Shown: positions 12,091 through 22,158, numbered from the stretch's first letter. The stretch: 64,000 bases of DNA from Anaeromyxobacteraceae bacterium (GCA_047602405.1 JASGHJ010000002.1:3040001-3104000), one strand, 5' to 3'. Notes: generated from the letters alone by a model not told the origin. Numbers and translations are program-made.

Positions 12091-12912
12091 TCAGGCCGGC
12101 CGCTTCAGGAGCCGCTCGAGGGCCTTCGCGCCCGCGAGGAGCAGCTCGACCTCGCGCTGGCTCGGCCCGGCCCTGGCCAGCAGCCGCCGGAAGTCCGCGA
12201 GCACCTGCTCCGGGTTCTGCGGGTTCGTGAAGCCCGCGGCGCCGAGCATGGCCTGCAGGCGGGCCCAGAGGGCCTCCACGGTGGCGTGGCGGGCGGGCTC
12301 GGGCGCGGGCTCGGCGGGCAGCGCGACCGGCGCGCCCGCGATCTCGTAGGCGACGACCGCCACCGCCTGGGCGAGGTTCATCGAGTCGTAGGCGGACGAG
12401 GTCGGGATGGTGCAGACGGCCTGGCAGAGCTCGAGCTCGGCGTCGGAGAGGCCGCGGCGCTCCTCCCCGAAGACGACCGCCACCTCCCCCGCGAGGCTCC
12501 GCCGCGCGACCTCCGCGGCGAGCTCCCGGGGGTGCAGGCGCGGCCGGCCGGGCAGCGTGCGCGACGTCGTACCGCAGGTCCAGGTGGCGGGGCCGAGCGC
12601 GGCGGCGAGGTCGGGGTGGACCTCGGCGCCCTCGAGCAGGTCCGAGGCGTGCCGGGCGGTGGTCCGGGCCCGGTCCATCACGTCGTCCCCCGCGGAACGA
12701 TCGGCCCCGGACCGGGGCGCCCCCGCCCAGGACGGCGGGGCCACGATGGCGAGGCGCGAGAGGCCGAAGTTCTTCATCGCCCGGGCGGCCTGCCCGACGT
12801 TCTCGGCGCTCGAGGGCCGGTGGAGCACGAACCTCGTCCTCGAGCGACCGGTGCTGGAGAGCCCGGCGCTCGACGGACCGGCGTTCGACGCACTCGTTTT
12901 TGACGGATCCAT
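12091..12912 (-). CDS. trmJ: TrmJ/LasT-family SPOUT RNA methyltransferase
   Basis: ENVGQAARAMKNFG, VFGEERRGLS, IPT...SMNLAQAV. Confidence 0.85.
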   Translation of the reverse strand: MDPSKTSASNAGPSSAGLSSTGRSRTRFVLHRPSSAENVGQAARAMKNFGLSRLAIVAPPSWAGAPRSGADRSAGDDVMDRARTTARHASDLLEGAEVHPDLAAALGPATWTCGTTSRTLPGRPRLHPRELAAEVARRSLAGEVAVVFGEERRGLSDAELELCQAVCTIPTSSAYDSMNLAQAVAVVAYEIAGAPVALPAEPAPEPARHATVEALWARLQAMLGAAGFTNPQNPEQVLADFRRLLARAGPSQREVELLLAGAKALERLLKRPA

Positions 12913-12941
12913 GGCGGTGGGCCCGGTATAGCATCCCGCGC

Positions 12942-13902
12942 ATGCTGAACGACGACGCCCTCCGCGCCCAGCTCCCGCACTGCCTGCGCCAGCTCGACCT
13001 GCCCGCCCTCGGCGAGCTCTACCGCGGCAAGGTCCGCGACAACTACTCCCGCGGCGACCGGATCGTGATGGTCACGACCGACCGGGTCTCCGCGTTCGAC
13101 CACGTCCTCGGGACCATCCCGTTCAAGGGCGAGGTCCTGTCGCGGCTCACCTCCTTCTGGTTCGAGAAGGTGAAGGACATCGCGCCCACCCACCTCGTGG
13201 ACGTGCCGGACCCGAGCGTGATGGTCGTGAAGCGCGCGAAGGCGCTGCCGGTCGAGATCGTGATCCGCGGGTACATCACGGGCTCCCTCTGGCGCGACTA
13301 CCAGGCCGGGAAGGCGGGCGCGTACGGCATCGCCTGGCCGGCGGGCCTGAAGAAGGACCAGCGGTTCGACCAGGCGATCATCACGCCCTCGACGAAGGCG
13401 GAGTACGGCAAGCACGACGAGCCGATCAGCGAGGCCGAGATCCTGAAGCAGGGGCTCGTGACCCCGGACATCTGGAAGGAGGCGACCGCGGTCGCGCACC
13501 GGCTTCTTCCAGCGCGGCCAGGAGTGGGCGAAGACCCGCGGCCTCATCCTCGTCGACACGAAGTACGAGATGGGGATCGCCGACGGGAAGCTCGTGGTCA
13601 TCGACGAGATCCACACGCCCGACTCGTCCCGCTACTGGGTCGCCGACGGCTACGAGGACCGCTTCCAGCGGGGCGTCGAGCAGCAGATGCTCGACAAGGA
13701 GAACATCCGGCAGTGGCTCATCACCGAGCACGGGTTCTCCGGCCACGGCACGCCGCCCGCGCTCACCGACGAGGTCCGGGTGATGCTCGCGCGGACCTAC
13801 CTGCAGCTCTTCGAGCGGCTGACCGGCCAGCCGTTCACCTCCGAGGTCGGCTCGGTCGCCTCCCGCATCGAGAAGAACCTGAAGGCGAAGCAGTACCTCT
13901 AG
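12942..13902 (+). CDS. purC: SAICAR synthase; +1 frameshift at ~13504 (probable sequencing error)
   Basis: YRGKVRD, DRVSAFD, ITPSTKAE; removing one T gives HRLFQRGQ..GLILVDTKYEMG..IDEIHTPDSSRYW. Length 961 = 3n+1. Confidence 0.93.
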
Positions 13903-14818: not shown

Positions 14819-16417
14819 TCAGCCGGCGTAGCGCCCCGGCAGGAGCGCCGTCCACCCGTCCTCGCGCGAGAGCGCCGCGGGCTTCACGTCGCCCGCGCGC
14901 CGGCCGCGCCGGCGGCAGGCCTCGTAGTACGCGGCCGCGGCGTCGCCCTCGACCACGTAGACGCGCGCCGGCGCGAGCTGGCCGAGCCGGACGCAGTGCA
15001 GGTAGTGGAAGCTCTCGCCGAGCGCGGCCTCGAGGCGGGCGCCGAGCGGCGCCGCGCCACCCGGGCCCACGGCGGCCCGCGCGACGTAGAGGGTGGTCGC
15101 GGGCGGGCCCCCCGACGCGTCCGGCGCGAGGAACGCGAGCCCGGGGCCGAGGCCCAGCCCGGCGAGCACCCGCGCCGCGAAGCCCTCGTGCAGCTTCTCG
15201 CCGCACCGGTCGAGGACGAGGTCCTCCTTGCCGACGAACTCGAGCGTCGGCGTCCGCGCGAGGAGCCCGGTCACGCGCACGCGGTCGAGGAGCCGGTAGC
15301 GCCACAGGCCGCCGCCGGTCGTGACGACCACGGAGCCCTCGTCCCCCTCGCGCCAGCGCTCGAGCGGGACGGGCCCCTGCCCCGGCAGCTCGAGCTCGAG
15401 GTAGTGCGAGCGCACCGCCGCGGGGCGGGCGCCGCCGAACGGGATCGACACGACCGCCTCGGTGGCGAGGAGCCCCTTCGCCTCGAGCGGCACGCCGGGG
15501 AGGAGCGCCTCGAGGTCGCGGGCCGGCGCCGCGGAGGGGCCGTCCGCCCAGGCCGAGACGAGCGCGAGGCGGGGCCAGACCGCCTGGAGGCCACGGGCGA
15601 GCGCGCGCTCCACCTCGCGGGCCCGCGCCGGCGCCGGGGCGAGCGGCGGCAGCGGGCCCTCGGCGGCCGCGCCGTCGCGGAGCGCGGCGAGGTGCGGCCC
15701 GGGGTCGTCCCGGAGCGGCGCGAGGAGGAGCGTGAGGAAGGTCGGGCTCCAGACCGAGAGGAGCCGGAGCTCCCGCGCGCGCAGGAGGTGCTGCAGCGTG
15801 CGCGCGCGCCAGGCGCCGAGGTCCTGGAGGTGGCGCACCGCCGAGGGCACCGCGAGCGTGGCCTCCACGAGCCGCCGCGCGGCGGCGCCGAGGTACTCGG
15901 CGTCGTCCTCGAAGCCGATGCGCGCGCCGCCGGCGGTGCGGCGCTCGCCCGCCGCGGCCGGGCTCACCGACCAGTACGCGGGGCCGAGCGCGAGCGCGGG
16001 ACGGCGGAGCGTCATGTCCGCGAGCCAGGGGCGGAGCGCGCGCTGGAACTCGTCGCGGAGCGGGGCCGGGTACGGCACGAGCTTCGTCGCGGCGGCGCTG
16101 CCGCTCGAGGGCTGGAAGAGCGGGACCGGCGCCGCCGAGAGGACGCCCGGCTCACCCGCGGCGGCCCGCTCGATCCACGGGAGGAGCCCGTCGTACGCGC
16201 GCGGCGGGACCCGCTCGAGGAACGCCCGCGGCGACGCGCCCGGCCCGAGCCCGTGCTCGCGCAGGAACGCGGCGCCCCCGTTCGCGCCGAGGATGCGCGC
16301 GAGCACCCCGGCCTGCGCGCGGGCCGGGTCGCCGAGCGCGGCGCGGAAGGCCCGCCACGCCGGGAGCATGGAGGCGAGGAGCGCGGCGTTCCCCGCGGCG
16401 GCGAGCGGCGCGAGCAC
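14819..16417 (-). CDS. GH3-family acyl-adenylate-forming (acyl-amide) ligase
   Basis: FQPSSGSAAATKLVP P-loop, GLLATEAVVS, VVTTGGGLWRYRLLD, GEKLHE. Confidence 0.85.
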   Translation of the reverse strand: MLAPLAAAGNAALLASMLPAWRAFRAALGDPARAQAGVLARILGANGGAAFLREHGLGPGASPRAFLERVPPRAYDGLLPWIERAAAGEPGVLSAAPVPLFQPSSGSAAATKLVPYPAPLRDEFQRALRPWLADMTLRRPALALGPAYWSVSPAAAGERRTAGGARIGFEDDAEYLGAAARRLVEATLAVPSAVRHLQDLGAWRARTLQHLLRARELRLLSVWSPTFLTLLLAPLRDDPGPHLAALRDGAAAEGPLPPLAPAPARAREVERALARGLQAVWPRLALVSAWADGPSAAPARDLEALLPGVPLEAKGLLATEAVVSIPFGGARPAAVRSHYLELELPGQGPVPLERWREGDEGSVVVTTGGGLWRYRLLDRVRVTGLLARTPTLEFVGKEDLVLDRCGEKLHEGFAARVLAGLGLGPGLAFLAPDASGGPPATTLYVARAAVGPGGAAPLGARLEAALGESFHYLHCVRLGQLAPARVYVVEGDAAAAYYEACRRRGRRAGDVKPAALSREDGWTALLPGRYAG

Positions 16418-16424
16418 GGCCGCC

Positions 16425-17210
16425 CTACCCGCGGAGCAACCGGCGCCCGGCGCCGGAGAGGTTCTCCGGGGAGACCTCGCAGAGGCAGGCGAGCTCGTCG
16501 CCGCGCGCGTGCCCGGGATCGAGCCGCGCGAAGAGCTCGACCGCGGGATCGCGGAGGCGCGCCTCGGTCACGTCCCCCACCCCGGGCTTCAGCCGGTGGA
16601 CGGAGCGCTCGAGGCGGATGACGCCGGTCGCCGCGTCGAAGCGCGCGCCGTACCGCTCGCGCGCGACGAGCGCGAGCCGCGCGGCGAGGTCCGGGGCGGC
16701 CTCGCGGGCCGCGGGGTGGTGGCGGCGGAAGAGCGTCGCCATCACCCGGTAGGTCCGGTGACCGGACGCGATCAGGAACCAGTCGAGCGGCTCGCCCGGC
16801 GCCTCGGCGGCCGCCGCGAGCGCACTCCGGAGCCAGGTCCGGATCGCGACCGGCGAGCGCCACGCGACGGGGTCGACGATCGTGTCGCCGCTGAAGAGCA
16901 CGCGGCGGCCCGTCGCCGCCGAGCGGTAGGCGAGCAGCGTCGAGAAGCCGCGCACCGCGCCCAGGCCGTCGGTGACGAGGACCACCCGGTCCTTCTCGTC
17001 GAGGTCGCGCTCGAAGTCCTCCCGGACCACGCCGTCGTAGTGGCGCTCGAGGAGCGCGAGCATCCCGGCGCGGGTCGCGCGGTCGAGCAGGCGCACCGGC
17101 ACGCAGGCGCCCGAGAGCGCCTCCTCGGGCGGCACGGGCTCGTGGAGCGGCACGGCCTTCTCGCCCGACGGGGTCCGGGCGGCGGGCGCGGCGAGCGTGG
17201 TGACGGTCAC
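16425..17210 (-). CDS. Hypothetical protein, probable GNAT-like fold
   Basis: FERDLDEKD..VRGFST..VLFSGDTIVDPVAW..WFLIASGHRTYR; GTGA overlap with the upstream gene. Confidence 0.7.
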   Translation of the reverse strand: MTVTTLAAPAARTPSGEKAVPLHEPVPPEEALSGACVPVRLLDRATRAGMLALLERHYDGVVREDFERDLDEKDRVVLVTDGLGAVRGFSTLLAYRSAATGRRVLFSGDTIVDPVAWRSPVAIRTWLRSALAAAAEAPGEPLDWFLIASGHRTYRVMATLFRRHHPAAREAAPDLAARLALVARERYGARFDAATGVIRLERSVHRLKPGVGDVTEARLRDPAVELFARLDPGHARGDELACLCEVSPENLSGAGRRLLRG

Positions 17211-18295
17211 AGGAGGGCGACCTCCGGCGCGAGCGGGCGACCGTCGAGCGCCGCCACCCGGGCGGCCCCCTCGACGCGGTAGACGGCGAAGACGGTGGAC
17301 GGGTACGCGCGGTGGCGGTGCCGGCGCGCCCCGGCGAGGAGCGGGTGCCCCGCCGCGAGGCCGAGGAGCAGCACCCGGAGCCCGCGCCGGTGGGCGAGGT
17401 CGAGCGCGGCGTCGAGGAGCGCGCCGAAGGCCGAGGGGTCGTCGCCGCGCGCGTGCGCGAAGGCGAGGAAGCCCGCGGCGAGGGTCTCGCCCACCGCCGG
17501 CAGGAGCGCCGCGGCGCCCGGGAGCCAGCGCAGGAGCGGCCGGGCGAGCCGGACGGCGCGGGAGTGGCCGCGCACGACGGTCTGCTTGAACGCCCGCTGG
17601 TCCCAGAGCGCGCCCGCCGCGGCGAGGGTGCCGCCCTCCTCCACGACGAGGAGATCACCCGGGCCGAGCCCGCGCGCGCGCGCGGGGCACGCGAGGCGCG
17701 CCCCGTCGAGCCGCGGCGCGAGCTGGAAGCGGCGGGCCTCGCCGTCGAGGAACGCGGCCACCTCCGGGAGGCGCTCCGGCGGGCAGGCGCGGGCGGACGG
17801 CGCGCCGCGCGCAGGGCGGGTGGCGAGCGCCAGCGTGACGAGCTCCCCGAGCGGCCGGTAGGTGGGCACGCCTGCCCGGCCGCTCGAGAGGAGGCGCCGC
17901 GCGCGCGGGTTGTCGCCCACGATGGCGGTGAAGTCGAAGGGCAGCTCGTCCGGGTCGCGGGCCGCCTCCAGCCGGCGGAAGCCGTCGCCCAGCAGCGCGA
18001 GCTCGCCCCGGGCGCCCGGCTGGATGCGGAGCTGCCCGAGGTAGCCCACCCGCGCCGGCGCCCCGTCCACCCAGGCATCCCGCACGGCCCGCGCCGCGAA
18101 GCCGACCACCCGCCCCTCCCGCCGCCCCACCACGACCGCGTGGCGGTCCCCCTCCACCTCCGCGGCGTGGCGCCAGTCCGGCTCGCGCTCGAACGCCAGC
18201 GAGAGCGGGCCCGGGAACGGCGTCTCGCGCAGGATCCGCCGGAGCTCCGGCTCGTCCGCGGCCGCCATGGGCCCGAGCTCGACCGTCGCGCTCAC
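17207..18295 (-). CDS. GNAT-like acyltransferase
   Basis: GTG at 18295 overlaps the upstream TGA; LAFEREPD, VVGFAAR, VGYLGQLRIQPGARG (motif A-like), IVGDNPRARRLL. Confidence 0.75.
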   Translation of the reverse strand: MSATVELGPMAAADEPELRRILRETPFPGPLSLAFEREPDWRHAAEVEGDRHAVVVGRREGRVVGFAARAVRDAWVDGAPARVGYLGQLRIQPGARGELALLGDGFRRLEAARDPDELPFDFTAIVGDNPRARRLLSSGRAGVPTYRPLGELVTLALATRPARGAPSARACPPERLPEVAAFLDGEARRFQLAPRLDGARLACPARARGLGPGDLLVVEEGGTLAAAGALWDQRAFKQTVVRGHSRAVRLARPLLRWLPGAAALLPAVGETLAAGFLAFAHARGDDPSAFGALLDAALDLAHRRGLRVLLLGLAAGHPLLAGARRHRHRAYPSTVFAVYRVEGAARVAALDGRPLAPEVALL

Positions 18296-19644
18296 TGGAC
18301 CTCGAGGAGCTCCGGCGGCGCGGCGGCGTCGCCGAGGGGGTGGCCATCGCGGAGCGAGATCTCGTCGTGGTGCAGTACGTTCGCGAAGAGGTAGCCCGCG
18401 GCGCGGCGGAGCGTGGCGCGGTTCCCGGGCGCCAGCAGGCGGGCCGCGGTGGAGCGCCAGGAGTAGAAGGCGCGCCGGGCGTCCAGGCACGCGCCGCGCA
18501 GCGTCTCGGGGCTCATCCGCGCCGGCCGGTAGGCCACCTGGCCGAAGCGGTAGCCGGGGTCGAGCCACCAGCGGTCGAAGAGGAGGCGCCCCTCGCGCGC
18601 GAGCCGGTCGTGGAGCGGCGTGCCGGGGAACGGGGTGAGGTGCGCGAACGCGGCGAGGAACATGCCCGACTCGCGCGCGAGCGCGAGCGACGGCGCGAAG
18701 GCGTCCGGGCCGTCCTGCTCGTAGCCGGCGACGAAGGTGCCGTAGACGGCGATGCGGTGCCGGCGCAGGTTCGCGAGCGCCCGCGCCACCCGGTCGCCGC
18801 CGTTGAAGGTCTTCCCCATGGCGCGGAGCACCTCGGGGTCGGTCGTCTCGAGCCCGATGAGCACGCCCTGGCAGCCGCTCCGCGCCATGCGCGCGACGAG
18901 GTCCTCGTCGAGGGCCGCGTGGATGGAGCACTGCGAGATCGAGGGTGCCCGCACGGTGGCGAGCCCGTCGAGGAGCTCCCTCGCGCCGGAGAGGTCGGCG
19001 GTGACGTTGTCGTCGACGAGGAACACGAGCGGGCGCTCCGCCCAGGCGGCGGCGACGTCCGCCACCACCTCGTCCACCGGGCGGGTGGTGCGCGACTGGC
19101 CGTAGGCCGACTGCACCGCGCAGAACTCGCAGTGGTAGGGGCAGCCCCGCCCGGACTCGACGAGGCCGATGGGGAGGTAGCGCCGGCCGCGGTAGAGGGT
19201 GCGGTCCGGCCGGACGCCGCGGAGCGCCGGGCGCGAGGTCGAGCGGTAGACGCGCTCGCCGCGCCCGTGGCGCCAGTCGTCGACGACCCTCGGCCAGAGC
19301 ACCTCCGCCTCGCCCACCACCGCGGAGTCGGCGTACCGCGCGACCTCGTCGGGCTGGAGCATCGCGTGGAAGCCGCCCATCACCACCGGCACGCCGCGGC
19401 GGCGGTACGCGCTCGCGATCTGGTAGGCGCGGCGGGCGGTGTAGGTCTCGACGGAGATGGCGACGAGGTCGGTCGGCGCGTCGTAGGGGATCTCCTCCAT
19501 GCGGTCGTCGTGCAGCACGACCTCGACGCCGCGCGGCGTGAGCGCGGCCAGCACCGCGAGCTGGAGCGGCTCCATCTGCCAGCTCCTCAGGTACCGCTCG
19601 CCGGGCCGCCGGCCGATGCAGGGCTGCACGAAGCTCACGCGCAC
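18292..19644 (-). CDS. B12-binding radical SAM protein 2
   Basis: Start VRVSFVQP at 19644; VVMGGFH, VVGEAE, SGRGCPYHCEFC (CxxxCxxC), FLVDDN, LTPFPGT. Confidence 0.9.
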   Translation of the reverse strand: MRVSFVQPCIGRRPGERYLRSWQMEPLQLAVLAALTPRGVEVVLHDDRMEEIPYDAPTDLVAISVETYTARRAYQIASAYRRRGVPVVMGGFHAMLQPDEVARYADSAVVGEAEVLWPRVVDDWRHGRGERVYRSTSRPALRGVRPDRTLYRGRRYLPIGLVESGRGCPYHCEFCAVQSAYGQSRTTRPVDEVVADVAAAWAERPLVFLVDDNVTADLSGARELLDGLATVRAPSISQCSIHAALDEDLVARMARSGCQGVLIGLETTDPEVLRAMGKTFNGGDRVARALANLRRHRIAVYGTFVAGYEQDGPDAFAPSLALARESGMFLAAFAHLTPFPGTPLHDRLAREGRLLFDRWWLDPGYRFGQVAYRPARMSPETLRGACLDARRAFYSWRSTAARLLAPGNRATLRRAAGYLFANVLHHDEISLRDGHPLGDAAAPPELLEVQ

Positions 19645-21090
19645 GGCGCCCTCCGGGGCTCGTCGGCGGGGGCGGCGGCGGACGCCGCGACGGCGGCCGC
19701 GGCGGGCGCCGCGACGGCGATGGGCCCGGCCGCGGCGGCGCGCTCGAGGGGCGACGGCGGCGCCGGGCTGAAGCCGACGATCCAGTCGCAGGTGTAGAAG
19801 CGGTGGAGGTTGCGCGCGTAGAAGCGGTAGCCGAGGTTCGCGGCGAGGAGGAGGTGCGGGTCCACCCGGGAGCGGAGGAGCCGCGAGGCGATGCTGCGGA
19901 GCCGGTAGGCGTGGCGCCAGGCCCGCTGGTGGCCCTCCTCGAGCTCCCGCACGGTCATGTTCCTCGGCTGGAAGACGACGTGCTGGGCGTCGTAGAGCTC
20001 CCAGTTCCGCGTGAGGATCCGGCCCTCGGCGTCGAGCCGCCGGTGGAGCGGCGTGCCGGGGAACGGCGTCACGATGGCGAAGCGCGGGAGATCGATGGCG
20101 GCGTCCACCGCGAAGCGCGCGGTCTTCTCGAAGACGTCGGGGGTGTCGTCGTCGAGCCCGAACGCGAAGCAGCCCATGAGCGCGATGCGGTGCCGGTGGA
20201 GGTCCGCGACGAGCGCCTTGTAGCGCTCGGGGTCGTTGAAGCCCTTCCGCGTCTTCGCGAGCGAGGCCTCGCAGAGCGACTCGAGCCCGATGAGCAGGCC
20301 CGCGCAGCCGCTCCGCGCGGCGAGCGCGAGGAGGTCCCGGTCGAGGCCGATGAGGGTCGTCGCGAGGCCGTACCAGCGGATGCGGAGCGGCACGAGCGCC
20401 TCGAAGAGGCGCGCCGCGTACCGGGTGTCGGAGACGAGGTTGAGGTCGATGAAGAGGACCTTCGGGGCGCCGAAGCGGCGGATGTCCTCGACGACGTCCT
20501 CGACCGGCTTCTGATGCTGCCTGCGCCCCCAGGCGGCGGGCGCGACGCAGAACTCGCAGTCGTGCGCGCAGGAGCGGGTCGCCTCGAAGACGGCGCGGGT
20601 GAAGTACTTCGCGGGATTCGAGGAGCTCGCGCCGCGGGAAGGGCAGCCCGGCGAGCGAGAGGTGCTCGCCCTGCGCGTAGCGCGGCGCGAGGCGCCCGGC
20701 CGCGAGGTCGCGCAGGAGCCGCGGCCAGGTCTCCTCGGCGTAGCCGGTGACCACCGCGTCGGCGTGCGCCTGGGCCTCGTCCGGCACGAGCGTCGGGTGC
20801 GGCCCGCCGAGCACCACCTTCGTCCCGCGGGCGCGGAGCCGGTCGGCGATGGCGTAGCCGCGGAGCGAGGAGCCGGTGATGAGCGTGATGCCCACGAGGT
20901 CGGCGTCGATCCGGTCCGGGTCGACGTCCTGGATCCCCTCGTCGAGGAGCTCGACCTCGGCGTGCAGCTCCGGCGGGACGTAGGCGGCGAGCGTCGTGAG
21001 CGTGAGCGGCCCGTAGCGGAGCGAGCGGCCGAAGATGCCGCCGCGGTGCCGGTAGAGCGGGCCCTTCGGAGAGACGAGCGCGATGCGCAT
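19635..21090 (-). CDS. B12-binding radical SAM protein 1; +1 frameshift at ~20617 (probable sequencing error)
   Basis: GAGGAGG RBS; PLTLTTLAA, VVLGGPHPT, then in the shifted frame EATRSCAHDCEFC, LIGLES, VTPFPGT. Length 1456 = 3n+1. Confidence 0.9.
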
Positions 21091-21209
21091 GGGACCTCCT
21101 CGGGAAGGATGCCGCGGGCCGGGCCCGGTGTGACGTCATGGTGAACCCTCCTGGGCACCCGGTCGAGACCGCCGTTGCCACGCGGACCGATACCCGGTCT
21201 CATGGCGGC

Positions 21210-22158
21210 ATGCGCACGCGCTCCACGCTCCTGGCCCTCGCGGCCCTCCTCTCCTCGTCCCCGGCGCTCGCCCACGAGCGCGTCCTCCTCGCCCAGTCCG
21301 GCAAGCCCGCGCCCGCCCCGGAGAAGATCCACCGGGTCGAGAAGCTCGCCGACGACGTCTACGCGATCATCACCGACCGCGGCGGCAACATGGGCCTCGT
21401 CGTCGGCGACCGGTTCTGCGTCCTCATCGACGATCAGTTCGAGCCGCTCGTGCCGGGGCTCCTCGCGGCGATCCGCACGGTGACCCGGAAGCCGCTCAAG
21501 TACCTCGTGAACACGCACCACCACGGCGACCACACCGGCGGCAACCTCGCGCTCGAGCGGCAGGTGCAGGTCATCGTCGCGCACGCCAGCTCGCGCAGGA
21601 ACCAGGCGGCCTCGCCCATGACGGCGGAGGCGGCGAAGAAGGGCGGGCTCCCGGAGCTCGTGTTCGGCGAGGCCGACCCGAAGGCGAAGGCGATGCTGGC
21701 GATCTACCTCGGTGGGATGGAGCTGCACCTCGTCCACCAGGCGCCGGCCCACACCGACGGCGACCTGATGGTCGGGATCCCGCAGCGCCACGTGCTCTTC
21801 GCGGGCGACGTCTTCTTCAACGGGATGACCCCGTTCATCGACACCTCCGCGGGCGGCAGCCTCGCCGGCTACCTCGAGAACCTCGACTACCTGCTCTCGT
21901 TCGTCCCGGACGACTCGAAGGTGGTCCCCGGGCACGGCCCGGTCGGCACGAAGGCCGACCTCGCCCGCTTCCGCGACTTCCTCGCCGCCGTGCAGAAGCA
22001 CGTCGCGGCGAGCCCCGGGAAGACCGGCGCGGAGCTCGCGGCGAGCTTCGACCGCAAGGCCTTCCCCGGCATCACCGACATCCCGAACTTCCTCTCCTGG
22101 GAGGCCTTCTTCGATTCTCGCCGCCGGGCGGCCGCCTCGGCTCCCGAAGGGGAAGTGA
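21210..22158 (+). CDS. Secreted metallo-beta-lactamase-fold hydrolase; +1 frameshift at ~22115 near the C-terminus
   Basis: Signal peptide, NTHHHGDHTGGN, AHTDGD, FAGD, PGHG. Removing one T gives FFDLAAGRPPRLPKGK* ending at 22158 and removes a >400-bp overlap with the convergent gene. Confidence 0.85.

Follow-up and report, generated by a model that had tools for sequence, protein, structure and literature searches.

A recurrent GNAT-GH3-GNAT gene trio with an optional pair of cobalamin-domain radical SAM enzymes: a candidate route to acyl amides or aminolipids

Positions 14,819 to 21,090 of a 64,000-nucleotide stretch of DNA from an Anaeromyxobacteraceae bacterium (GCA_047602405.1 JASGHJ010000002.1:3040001-3104000; hereafter the window) carry five genes, all on the minus strand and in the order rSAM1-rSAM2-G362-U261-GH3. 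They encode two radical S-adenosylmethionine (rSAM) proteins, two GNAT-fold proteins and a GH3-family ligase. Comparison with related loci indicates that the GNAT-GH3-GNAT trio is the conserved core of this system and that the rSAM pair is an optional module. The features of the operon, in window coordinates and with the basis of each call, are as follows.

21095..21101, minus strand: Shine-Dalgarno-like GAGGAGG 5′ of the rSAM1 ATG (sequence)
19635..21090, minus strand: rSAM1 (clade A), a radical SAM protein with a B12-binding domain and a DUF4070-like C-terminal part, carrying a one-base frameshift in the assembly (Pfam, tree)
20616..20618, minus strand: one extra base inside rSAM1, a probable assembly error (comparison with relatives)
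20547..20570, minus strand: CxxxCxxC motif of rSAM1, CAHDCEFC (sequence)
18292..19644, minus strand: rSAM2 (clade B), a radical SAM protein with a B12-binding domain, 450 aa (Pfam, tree)
19120..19143, minus strand: CxxxCxxC motif of rSAM2, CPYHCEFC (sequence)
17207..18295, minus strand: G362, a tandem-GNAT protein of 362 aa with an N-myristoyltransferase (NMT)-like fold and a conserved C-terminal E-x-x-x-L (structure model, alignment)
16425..17210, minus strand: U261, a single GNAT domain with a C-terminal extension, 261 aa (structure model, profiles)
14819..16417, minus strand: GH3-family adenylating amide ligase, 532 aa (Pfam, motif alignment)

In gene order the junctions are overlaps of 10, 4 and 4 nt followed by a gap of 7 nt. 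An earlier note, made from the sequence alone, had described five co-directional genes with these same junctions; coordinates derived anew agree with it, and its claim of a single operon is supported. Beyond the 115 nt upstream of rSAM1 lies a divergent gene; at the other end, GH3 faces a convergent esterase gene, which does not recur among the neighbour families of other loci. Scans of the operon for promoters and terminators found none, and none had been expected. The nearest relative, in a record titled Anaeromyxobacter sp., has protein identities of 91-96%, and the same gene set was found in records titled Anaeromyxobacter, Blastocatellia, Tepidisphaeraceae, Campylobacterota, Novosphingobium and Spirochaetales. 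The earlier note had proposed looking for the gene set in other genomes; it is seen there across phyla, and this recurrence points to an association beyond chance.

The unit that recurs most widely is smaller than the five genes. U261 is present in 148 of 401 genomes of this phylum, in 9 of 92 genomes of the family and, in the order to which a Pseudomonas record belongs, in 30 of 401 genomes. We counted partners in 50 loci with at least 5 kb of sequence on each side (the flanked loci), leaving out 7 duplicate or satellite and 30 short loci. GH3, counted when within 9 kb of U261, is present in 40, G362 in 27, a Rieske oxygenase in 23, an rSAM in 20, a desaturase in 12 and a PAP2 protein in 9. 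All 20 rSAM-bearing loci contain G362, and a clade-B rSAM lies directly before G362 in 39 of 51 loci. Among 20 Pseudomonadales loci hand-picked from 37 places, GH3 occurs in 19 and G362 in 17, with no rSAM in any; in this order genes for efflux and for fatty-acid metabolism are often neighbours of the trio. In family f2 (myxobacteria by inference), G362 lies 7-26 kb from U261 in all five complete genomes tested; cluster-type rSAMs were found only in the sister genome among 14 tested, with distant matches in three others. On a GH3 tree with Shimodaira-Hasegawa-like approximate likelihood-ratio (SH-aLRT) supports, rSAM presence tracks how the GH3 proteins are related (5 changes of label, where shuffling gave at least 15), and the locus counts are not independent. 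Since many loci have the trio without an rSAM, the trio is the core and the rSAM pair is optional, and the earlier note's five-gene set does not hold up as the unit (an rSAM in just 20 of the flanked loci and in none of the Pseudomonadales loci).

The structure model of U261 (pLDDT 92.2) has a GNAT fold followed by a C-terminal extension, and its top Foldseek and VIA matches are all GNATs (Z 13.0, root-mean-square deviation 3.0, 156 residues aligned), in line with the GNAT-like call of the earlier note for 16425-17210. Its profile also matches the N-terminal domain of G362 (E 2e-5). U261 lies outside every Pfam and NCBIfam family, and neither single-sequence nor profile searches of PDB sequences gave a significant match. 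A search of the ESM Atlas returned only unnamed or generic GNAT clusters, NodA at 0.83 being a lead only. Whole-length structural matches include LasI (Z 11.4) and FeeM (Z 10.7), tied with many other GNATs. The canonical CoA pyrophosphate loop of GNATs is R/Q-x-x-G-x-G/A; U261 does not have it, and its consensus after beta-4 reads W-G-x-x-x-L. The link to GH3 is close: GH3 is the next gene after U261 in 61 of 93 loci, and in-frame U261-GH3 fusions occur in P0267, P0275 and P0305 (3 of the 150 representatives listed). At 50% identity, and with E up to 1e-10, U261 forms 1822 clusters.

Divergent U261-like domains fused to a C-terminal cyclic-nucleotide-binding domain occur at L144:9679-11190 and L146:8922-10430, and such genes stand alone in several large myxobacterial-type genomes. 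The fusion protein is possibly an acyltransferase regulated by cyclic nucleotides; no FeeM link for these paralogues was found in Pfam. On an Azospirillum brasilense Sp7 replicon (L184:8392-9756), a U261 homologue without GH3 lies beside a male-sterility-type acyl reductase and ABC transporters.

G362, which the earlier note had likewise called GNAT-like (17207-18295), is modelled with high confidence (pLDDT 95.4) as a tandem GNAT fold, and its best Foldseek matches are eukaryotic NMTs (E 6e-12, TM about 0.6). Identity to these is only 11-13%, no NMT match was found in Pfam, and searches of PDB sequences gave no significant match of any kind, even with a profile of 111 sequences. In NMT the C-terminal carboxylate is the catalytic base, and activity is lost when three residues are removed (PMC7048800). 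The end of G362 looks as expected of such an enzyme: all 111 aligned homologues stop at the same column and 107 of them carry E-x-x-x-L, and a Glu or Asp lies five residues before the end in 72 of 72 locus open reading frames, a set selected for profile matches that reach the stop. By analogy, G362 may use its own C-terminal carboxylate as base. The sole longer match, P0394 (1301 aa), was considered as an rSAM-rSAM-GNAT fusion and rejected as an artefact: rSAM2 matches its residues 2-192 only, and out-of-frame sequence follows. The search that yielded it is weak evidence on fusions.

For the ligase, the GH3 call of the earlier note stands. PF03321 (86.8 bits) and PF23571 (40.3 bits) are both above the gathering cut-off of 23.6 that applies to each; GH3_C reaches just 15.9 in this copy and is above cut-off in relatives. 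The nucleotide-binding motifs, defined as SSGTS..K, YGSSE and GLYRY.LGD (PMC12493201), appear here as SSGSAAATK, GLLATE and GGLWRYRLLD. In an alignment of 20 sequences the Tyr of the second motif is replaced and its Glu is invariant, and 20 relatives share the three motifs together with a conserved C-terminal lysine.

A close functional parallel is the ornithine-lipid pathway of Singulisphaera acidiphila, in which the bacterial GH3 enzyme OlsH converts a free fatty acid and ATP to an N-acyl-ornithine (PMC12493201). OlsH, too, carries three such nucleotide-binding motifs, needs no carrier protein to form its N-acyl amide and is encoded beside a second acyltransferase, OlsI. The differences are these: motif II is Y-x-x-S-E there and GLLATE here, OlsI is an alpha/beta-hydrolase whereas the partners here are two GNATs with no hydrolase in the operon, and the parts of that paper examined give no counterpart of the rSAM pair and the export genes. 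Against the OlsH model NF052613 (cut-off 620) two relatives of the present ligase score 70.9 and 28.6 bits and this copy 19.3; by these scores it is not OlsH.

Both rSAM proteins match the B12-binding domain PF02310 (42.9 and 34.1 bits, cut-off 32.1) and PF04055 above the Pfam cut-off, rSAM1 doing so for PF04055 only when read across its frameshift; the B12 domain makes both putatively B12-dependent. They fall in distinct clades. When 104-106 rSAMs of the clusters are placed in a tree, group A (SH-aLRT 98) stands apart from group B/C/D (96), and A and B occur together in 24 of 26 loci of at least 10 kb, one further locus having a split A. Radical methylases are marked by a hydrophobic residue at the lower axial cobalamin position, Trp76 in TokK (PMC12931638). 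By a weak alignment of 8.1 bits, the corresponding position holds Tyr or Phe in 63 of 64 clade B/C/D sequences (Tyr68 in rSAM2) and, among 41 of clade A, Gly in 34, Cys in 4, Ser in 2 and Tyr in 1; the residue of TokK Trp215 is found in neither clade. The second Asp of D-D-N is replaced in 40 of the 41 clade A proteins. These differences at likely cofactor-facing positions would fit two different reactions, with a methylase in clade B and a non-methylating enzyme in clade A as a lead.

The nearest solved sequences (E 6e-20 to 8e-8) are AprD4 and the class I B12-rSAMs TokK, QCMT, TsrM and OxsB, all with the same domain order; QCMT, a protein glutamine methylase, is the second nearest. None of the NCBIfam equivalogs BchE, HpnJ, HpnR, AprD4, MgmA, PhpK and TsrM was reached (best 62-68 bits, cut-offs 251-650). 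B12-rSAMs are known to methylate, cyclise and desaturate lipids (PMC13459092; bioRxiv 10.1101/2025.10.20.683597). The lipid-modifying GrsA/GrsB, Gmm, Ted and HpnP/HpnR/HpnJ likewise combine an N-terminal B12-binding domain with a CxxxCxxC barrel, and GrsA and GrsB, which act in sequence (PMC13459092), are a pair of paralogues like rSAM1 and rSAM2. NCBIfam scores to lipid-modifying enzymes lie far under cut-off, and Grs, Gmm and Ted are likened to the present pair by description, not by sequence.

Several neighbours that recur at these loci are of lipid type: desaturase-family proteins, PAP2 proteins (some fused to a desaturase), FA_hydroxylase, a lipase chaperone, MaoC hydratase and a PapA-like acyltransferase. 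AurF and ferritin-like di-iron proteins, glycosyltransferases and NTF2-like proteins also recur. Away from the operon, at about 1.72-1.77 Mb of C1, the genome has a Rieske gene and a pair of PAP2 genes; considered as parts of the system, they were left unassigned, as they sit among unrelated genes.

Export genes form a second group of neighbours. A HlyD-type membrane fusion protein (MFP) is encoded on the same strand within 6.5 kb in 12 of 21 gammaproteobacterial loci. In Acinetobacter baumannii NZ_CP064203.1 the order is MFP, major facilitator superfamily (MFS) protein, U261, GH3, outer-membrane efflux protein (OEP), G362. A published cloning primer of the AmfAB pump (A1S_1772/1773) matches the MFP start with 0 of 23 mismatches, and a flanking primer finds its site within U261, with 1 mismatch in 21; neither another primer of the locus (8 mismatches) nor a control (5 mismatches) gave a match. 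The trio lies directly downstream of AmfAB in this record, in which no cluster-type rSAM was found. The AmfAB study treats the pump alone and, in the parts available, mentions neither a GH3 protein nor an acetyltransferase; it states that the amfAB operon is without an outer-membrane channel (PMC10812440). The OEP gene of NZ_CP064203.1 (L185:6165-13844) lies 2.5 kb downstream of amfAB and overlaps GH3 and G362. The record is labelled a plasmid yet is 3.97 Mb long.

In the genome studied here, a satellite locus distant from the operon (L159:9516-13055; G000 C1 533.5-537.1 kb) holds a third rSAM, of the A group, followed by a gene for an MMPL protein. An orthologue of the latter (57-65% identity) lies beside U261 in five family members and is present in 7 of 92 family genomes, six of which have U261. 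The satellite was not found in the sister genome G195. Near it lie RelE/HigA-like toxin-antitoxin and nucleotidyltransferase-like genes, named by reading the sequences, which suggest a separate acquisition.

Taken together, we give a probability of about 0.5 to the reading that the operon makes an exported or surface fatty-acyl amide or aminolipid, assembled by the trio and tailored by the rSAMs. The earlier note had proposed an N-acyl amide, an aminolipid or a signal molecule; the first two are kept as the best reading, and a signal passes to a lower-rated alternative weighed below. In the proposed scheme, whose first three steps are given in no set order, GH3, with its motifs observed, would adenylate a fatty-type carboxylic acid and ligate it to an amine, as its family and OlsH suggest. 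U261 would work with GH3, to judge from adjacency and fusions, and would likely add another acyl group, taken from a donor that is not acetyl-CoA, given its non-canonical loop after beta-4. G362 would likely acylate a primary amine from a long-chain acyl-CoA with its C-terminal carboxylate as base, a mechanism suggested by its fold and end. Judging by the clade differences, rSAM2, usually encoded directly before G362, would likely C-methylate, and rSAM1 would likely carry out a radical reaction without methylation, for example a desaturation or the closing of a ring by a C-C bond; these are the weakest steps of the scheme. The product would leave through the co-located MMPL or MFP-type exporters.

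Several observations weigh against this reading. The methylase call draws on the 8.1-bit TokK domain alignment, the solved rSAM nearest by sequence is the dehydratase AprD4, and the ligase scores just 19 bits against the OlsH model. AprD4 is not known to use cobalamin. None of the five genes of the present operon is specific to lipids or to export, and MMPL is dispensable, since the cassette occurs without it in G371, in G397 and in the sister genome G195 (99% complete). Of the 12 loci counted with the HlyD profile, 5 had served to build it; the profile matches 0 of 56 other loci, and the loci concerned are related to one another and do not count as independent. The best scores of the desaturase-family neighbours are to GntB, the L-arginine hydroxylase of guanitoxin synthesis, and those of the Rieske proteins to SxtT/DdmC/NdmA and the sterol enzyme SdmA, all far under cut-off; with the partner oxygenases closest to enzymes that act on small polar compounds, a substrate of that kind fits equally.

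On a separate point, we hold it unlikely that the rSAMs are plain oxygen-independent substitutes for the Rieske and di-iron oxygenases of other cluster versions. The flanked loci divide accordingly, with rSAM only in 16, Rieske only in 19, both in 4 and neither in 11, and Ted provides a B12-rSAM that desaturates lipids anaerobically (bioRxiv 10.1101/2025.10.20.683597). However, an oxygen-dependent enzyme is also present in 6 of the 20 rSAM loci, and the rSAM/Rieske split largely follows GH3 kinship, which makes the loci non-independent.

Among the alternatives for the product, we hold it rather unlikely that a secondary metabolite or a signal of polar or amphiphilic character is made (an acylated amino acid or diamine, or a siderophore-like compound) instead of a membrane-associated lipid. 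The oxygenase matches just described are to enzymes of small polar molecules, export is of EmrAB type with induction at low iron, and LasI and FeeM are among the structural matches of U261, if tied with many other GNATs. The PAP2 proteins and PAP2-desaturase fusions, MMPL, FA_hydroxylase and the NMT-like fold, on the other hand, indicate long acyl chains.

We find it doubtful that the trio conjugates and exports foreign or excess hydrophobic acids (fatty or bile acids) as a detoxification system, comparable to plant GH3s that conjugate hormones. AraC regulators within 6.5 kb in 11 of the 21 gammaproteobacterial loci would suit such a role, but losing AmfCD produces the bile phenotype too, and deletion of AmfAB alone in the wild type has no bile effect. 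Biosynthesis would also better account for the cost of two to six rSAMs and for the presence of glycosyltransferases and PAP2 fusions.

A further question concerns rSAM1 itself. The earlier note had seen an N-terminal cobalamin-type region and an intact CxxxCxxC in both rSAM proteins; domains and motifs are there, but in rSAM1 a frameshift lies between them. The gene spans 1456 nt, which is not divisible by 3, the extra base near 20617 places the B12 domain and the CxxxCxxC in different frames, and as assembled the ATG at 21090 starts a 932-aa frame that continues into rSAM2. The orthologue in L001 is intact (487 aa, 94-96% identical) and has no extra base, and the base is absent from close-relative contigs (about 94-95% identical) in all 4 runs compared, of 22 listed, these 4 being from relatives and none from this strain. 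Comparison with 240 kb from the sister genome shows frame switches in this assembly for 19 of 98 orthologous open reading frames, with 21 switches in 125.5 kb or about 1 per 6 kb, so that about one is expected in the 6.3-kb operon. The extra base is likely an assembly error, and pseudogene calls from this indel-rich assembly are unreliable. That rSAM1 is truly a pseudogene and the operon is decaying in this strain we regard as quite improbable: the frameshift is present in the assembly, but the genome-wide rate predicts about one such switch, rSAM1 is intact in relatives, and a neighbouring purC-like gene (window 12900-13902) and a metallo-beta-lactamase (MBL)-fold gene (about 22116) are also split or shifted.

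Least probable is that G362 is a true protein or peptide N-acyltransferase, with the rSAMs and GH3 modifying a target encoded elsewhere: its NMT-like fold and C-terminus and the rank of QCMT would suit this, but no recurrent small open reading frame was found in the loci (gene calls from 70-80 aa upward), the upstream 115 nt abut the divergent gene, GH3 converges on the esterase, and lipid-tailoring neighbours recur.

Returning to the fatty-acyl amide or aminolipid reading, we regard the operon as encoding a genuine pathway that is so far uncharacterised, a variant form of amide-lipid synthesis by GH3 that would function like OlsH yet is not the OlsH pathway. The earlier note knew of no characterised pathway with this composition, and no description of the cluster was found in the literature searched (chiefly open-access papers, with MIBiG outside the search), nor in the parts examined of reviews on aminolipids (PMC12971839) and on lipid-modifying rSAMs (PMC13459092). 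A bolder version, which we consider a long shot, is a widespread bacterial lipo-amide line, free of carrier proteins, in which GH3, a GNAT that takes the acyl-adenylate directly and an NMT-like enzyme that catalyses through its own C-terminus would make an exported lipid, the natural cargo of AmfAB. Depending on the lineage, this lipid would be finished either by oxygenases or by B12 radical enzymes, of which one would methylate an unactivated acyl chain and the other desaturate or cyclise it, with no need of oxygen.

Of interest in the system are a candidate NMT-like enzyme of bacteria, a GH3 pathway that would be the second from bacteria after OlsH, and a new pair of clades of radical enzymes with a B12 domain; U261 is widespread yet without a family model or a described product. 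As the bare trio is found in cultured bacteria, and also behind a pump with mutants and expression data, its product should be traceable without the oxygen-sensitive rSAMs, and the rSAM step could then be read as a mass shift.

Other observations concern the surroundings of the operon and of its relatives. Divergent from it, at 21205-22140 on the plus strand of the window, lies the MBL-fold hydrolase gene, whose product has a signal peptide; its best model is a SoxH-related zinc metallohydrolase, it falls under every beta-lactamase cut-off, and the gene is shared with L001 and not with other clusters. A four-rSAM cluster with PAP2 and NTF2 genes is carried on a mobilisable IncF plasmid of Citrobacter (L183, NZ_CP134684.1), and a five-rSAM cluster contains a phosphatidylserine-decarboxylase-family gene (L137:7196-7906). 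L151, L156 and L187 combine genes for Rieske, U261, short-chain dehydrogenase/reductase (SDR), ferritin-like and AurF-like di-iron proteins, FA hydroxylase, hexapeptide acyltransferase and GH3, with no G362 nearby and a gene order near-identical in two phyla. Finally, an RnfD-like membrane domain fused to FG-GAP/ASPIC-UnbV repeats (L120-L123, L142, L143, L147, L148, L155, L186) is encoded directly 5′ of U261-GH3-Rieske in many f2 genomes and 3′ of the cluster in one Pseudomonadales genome.

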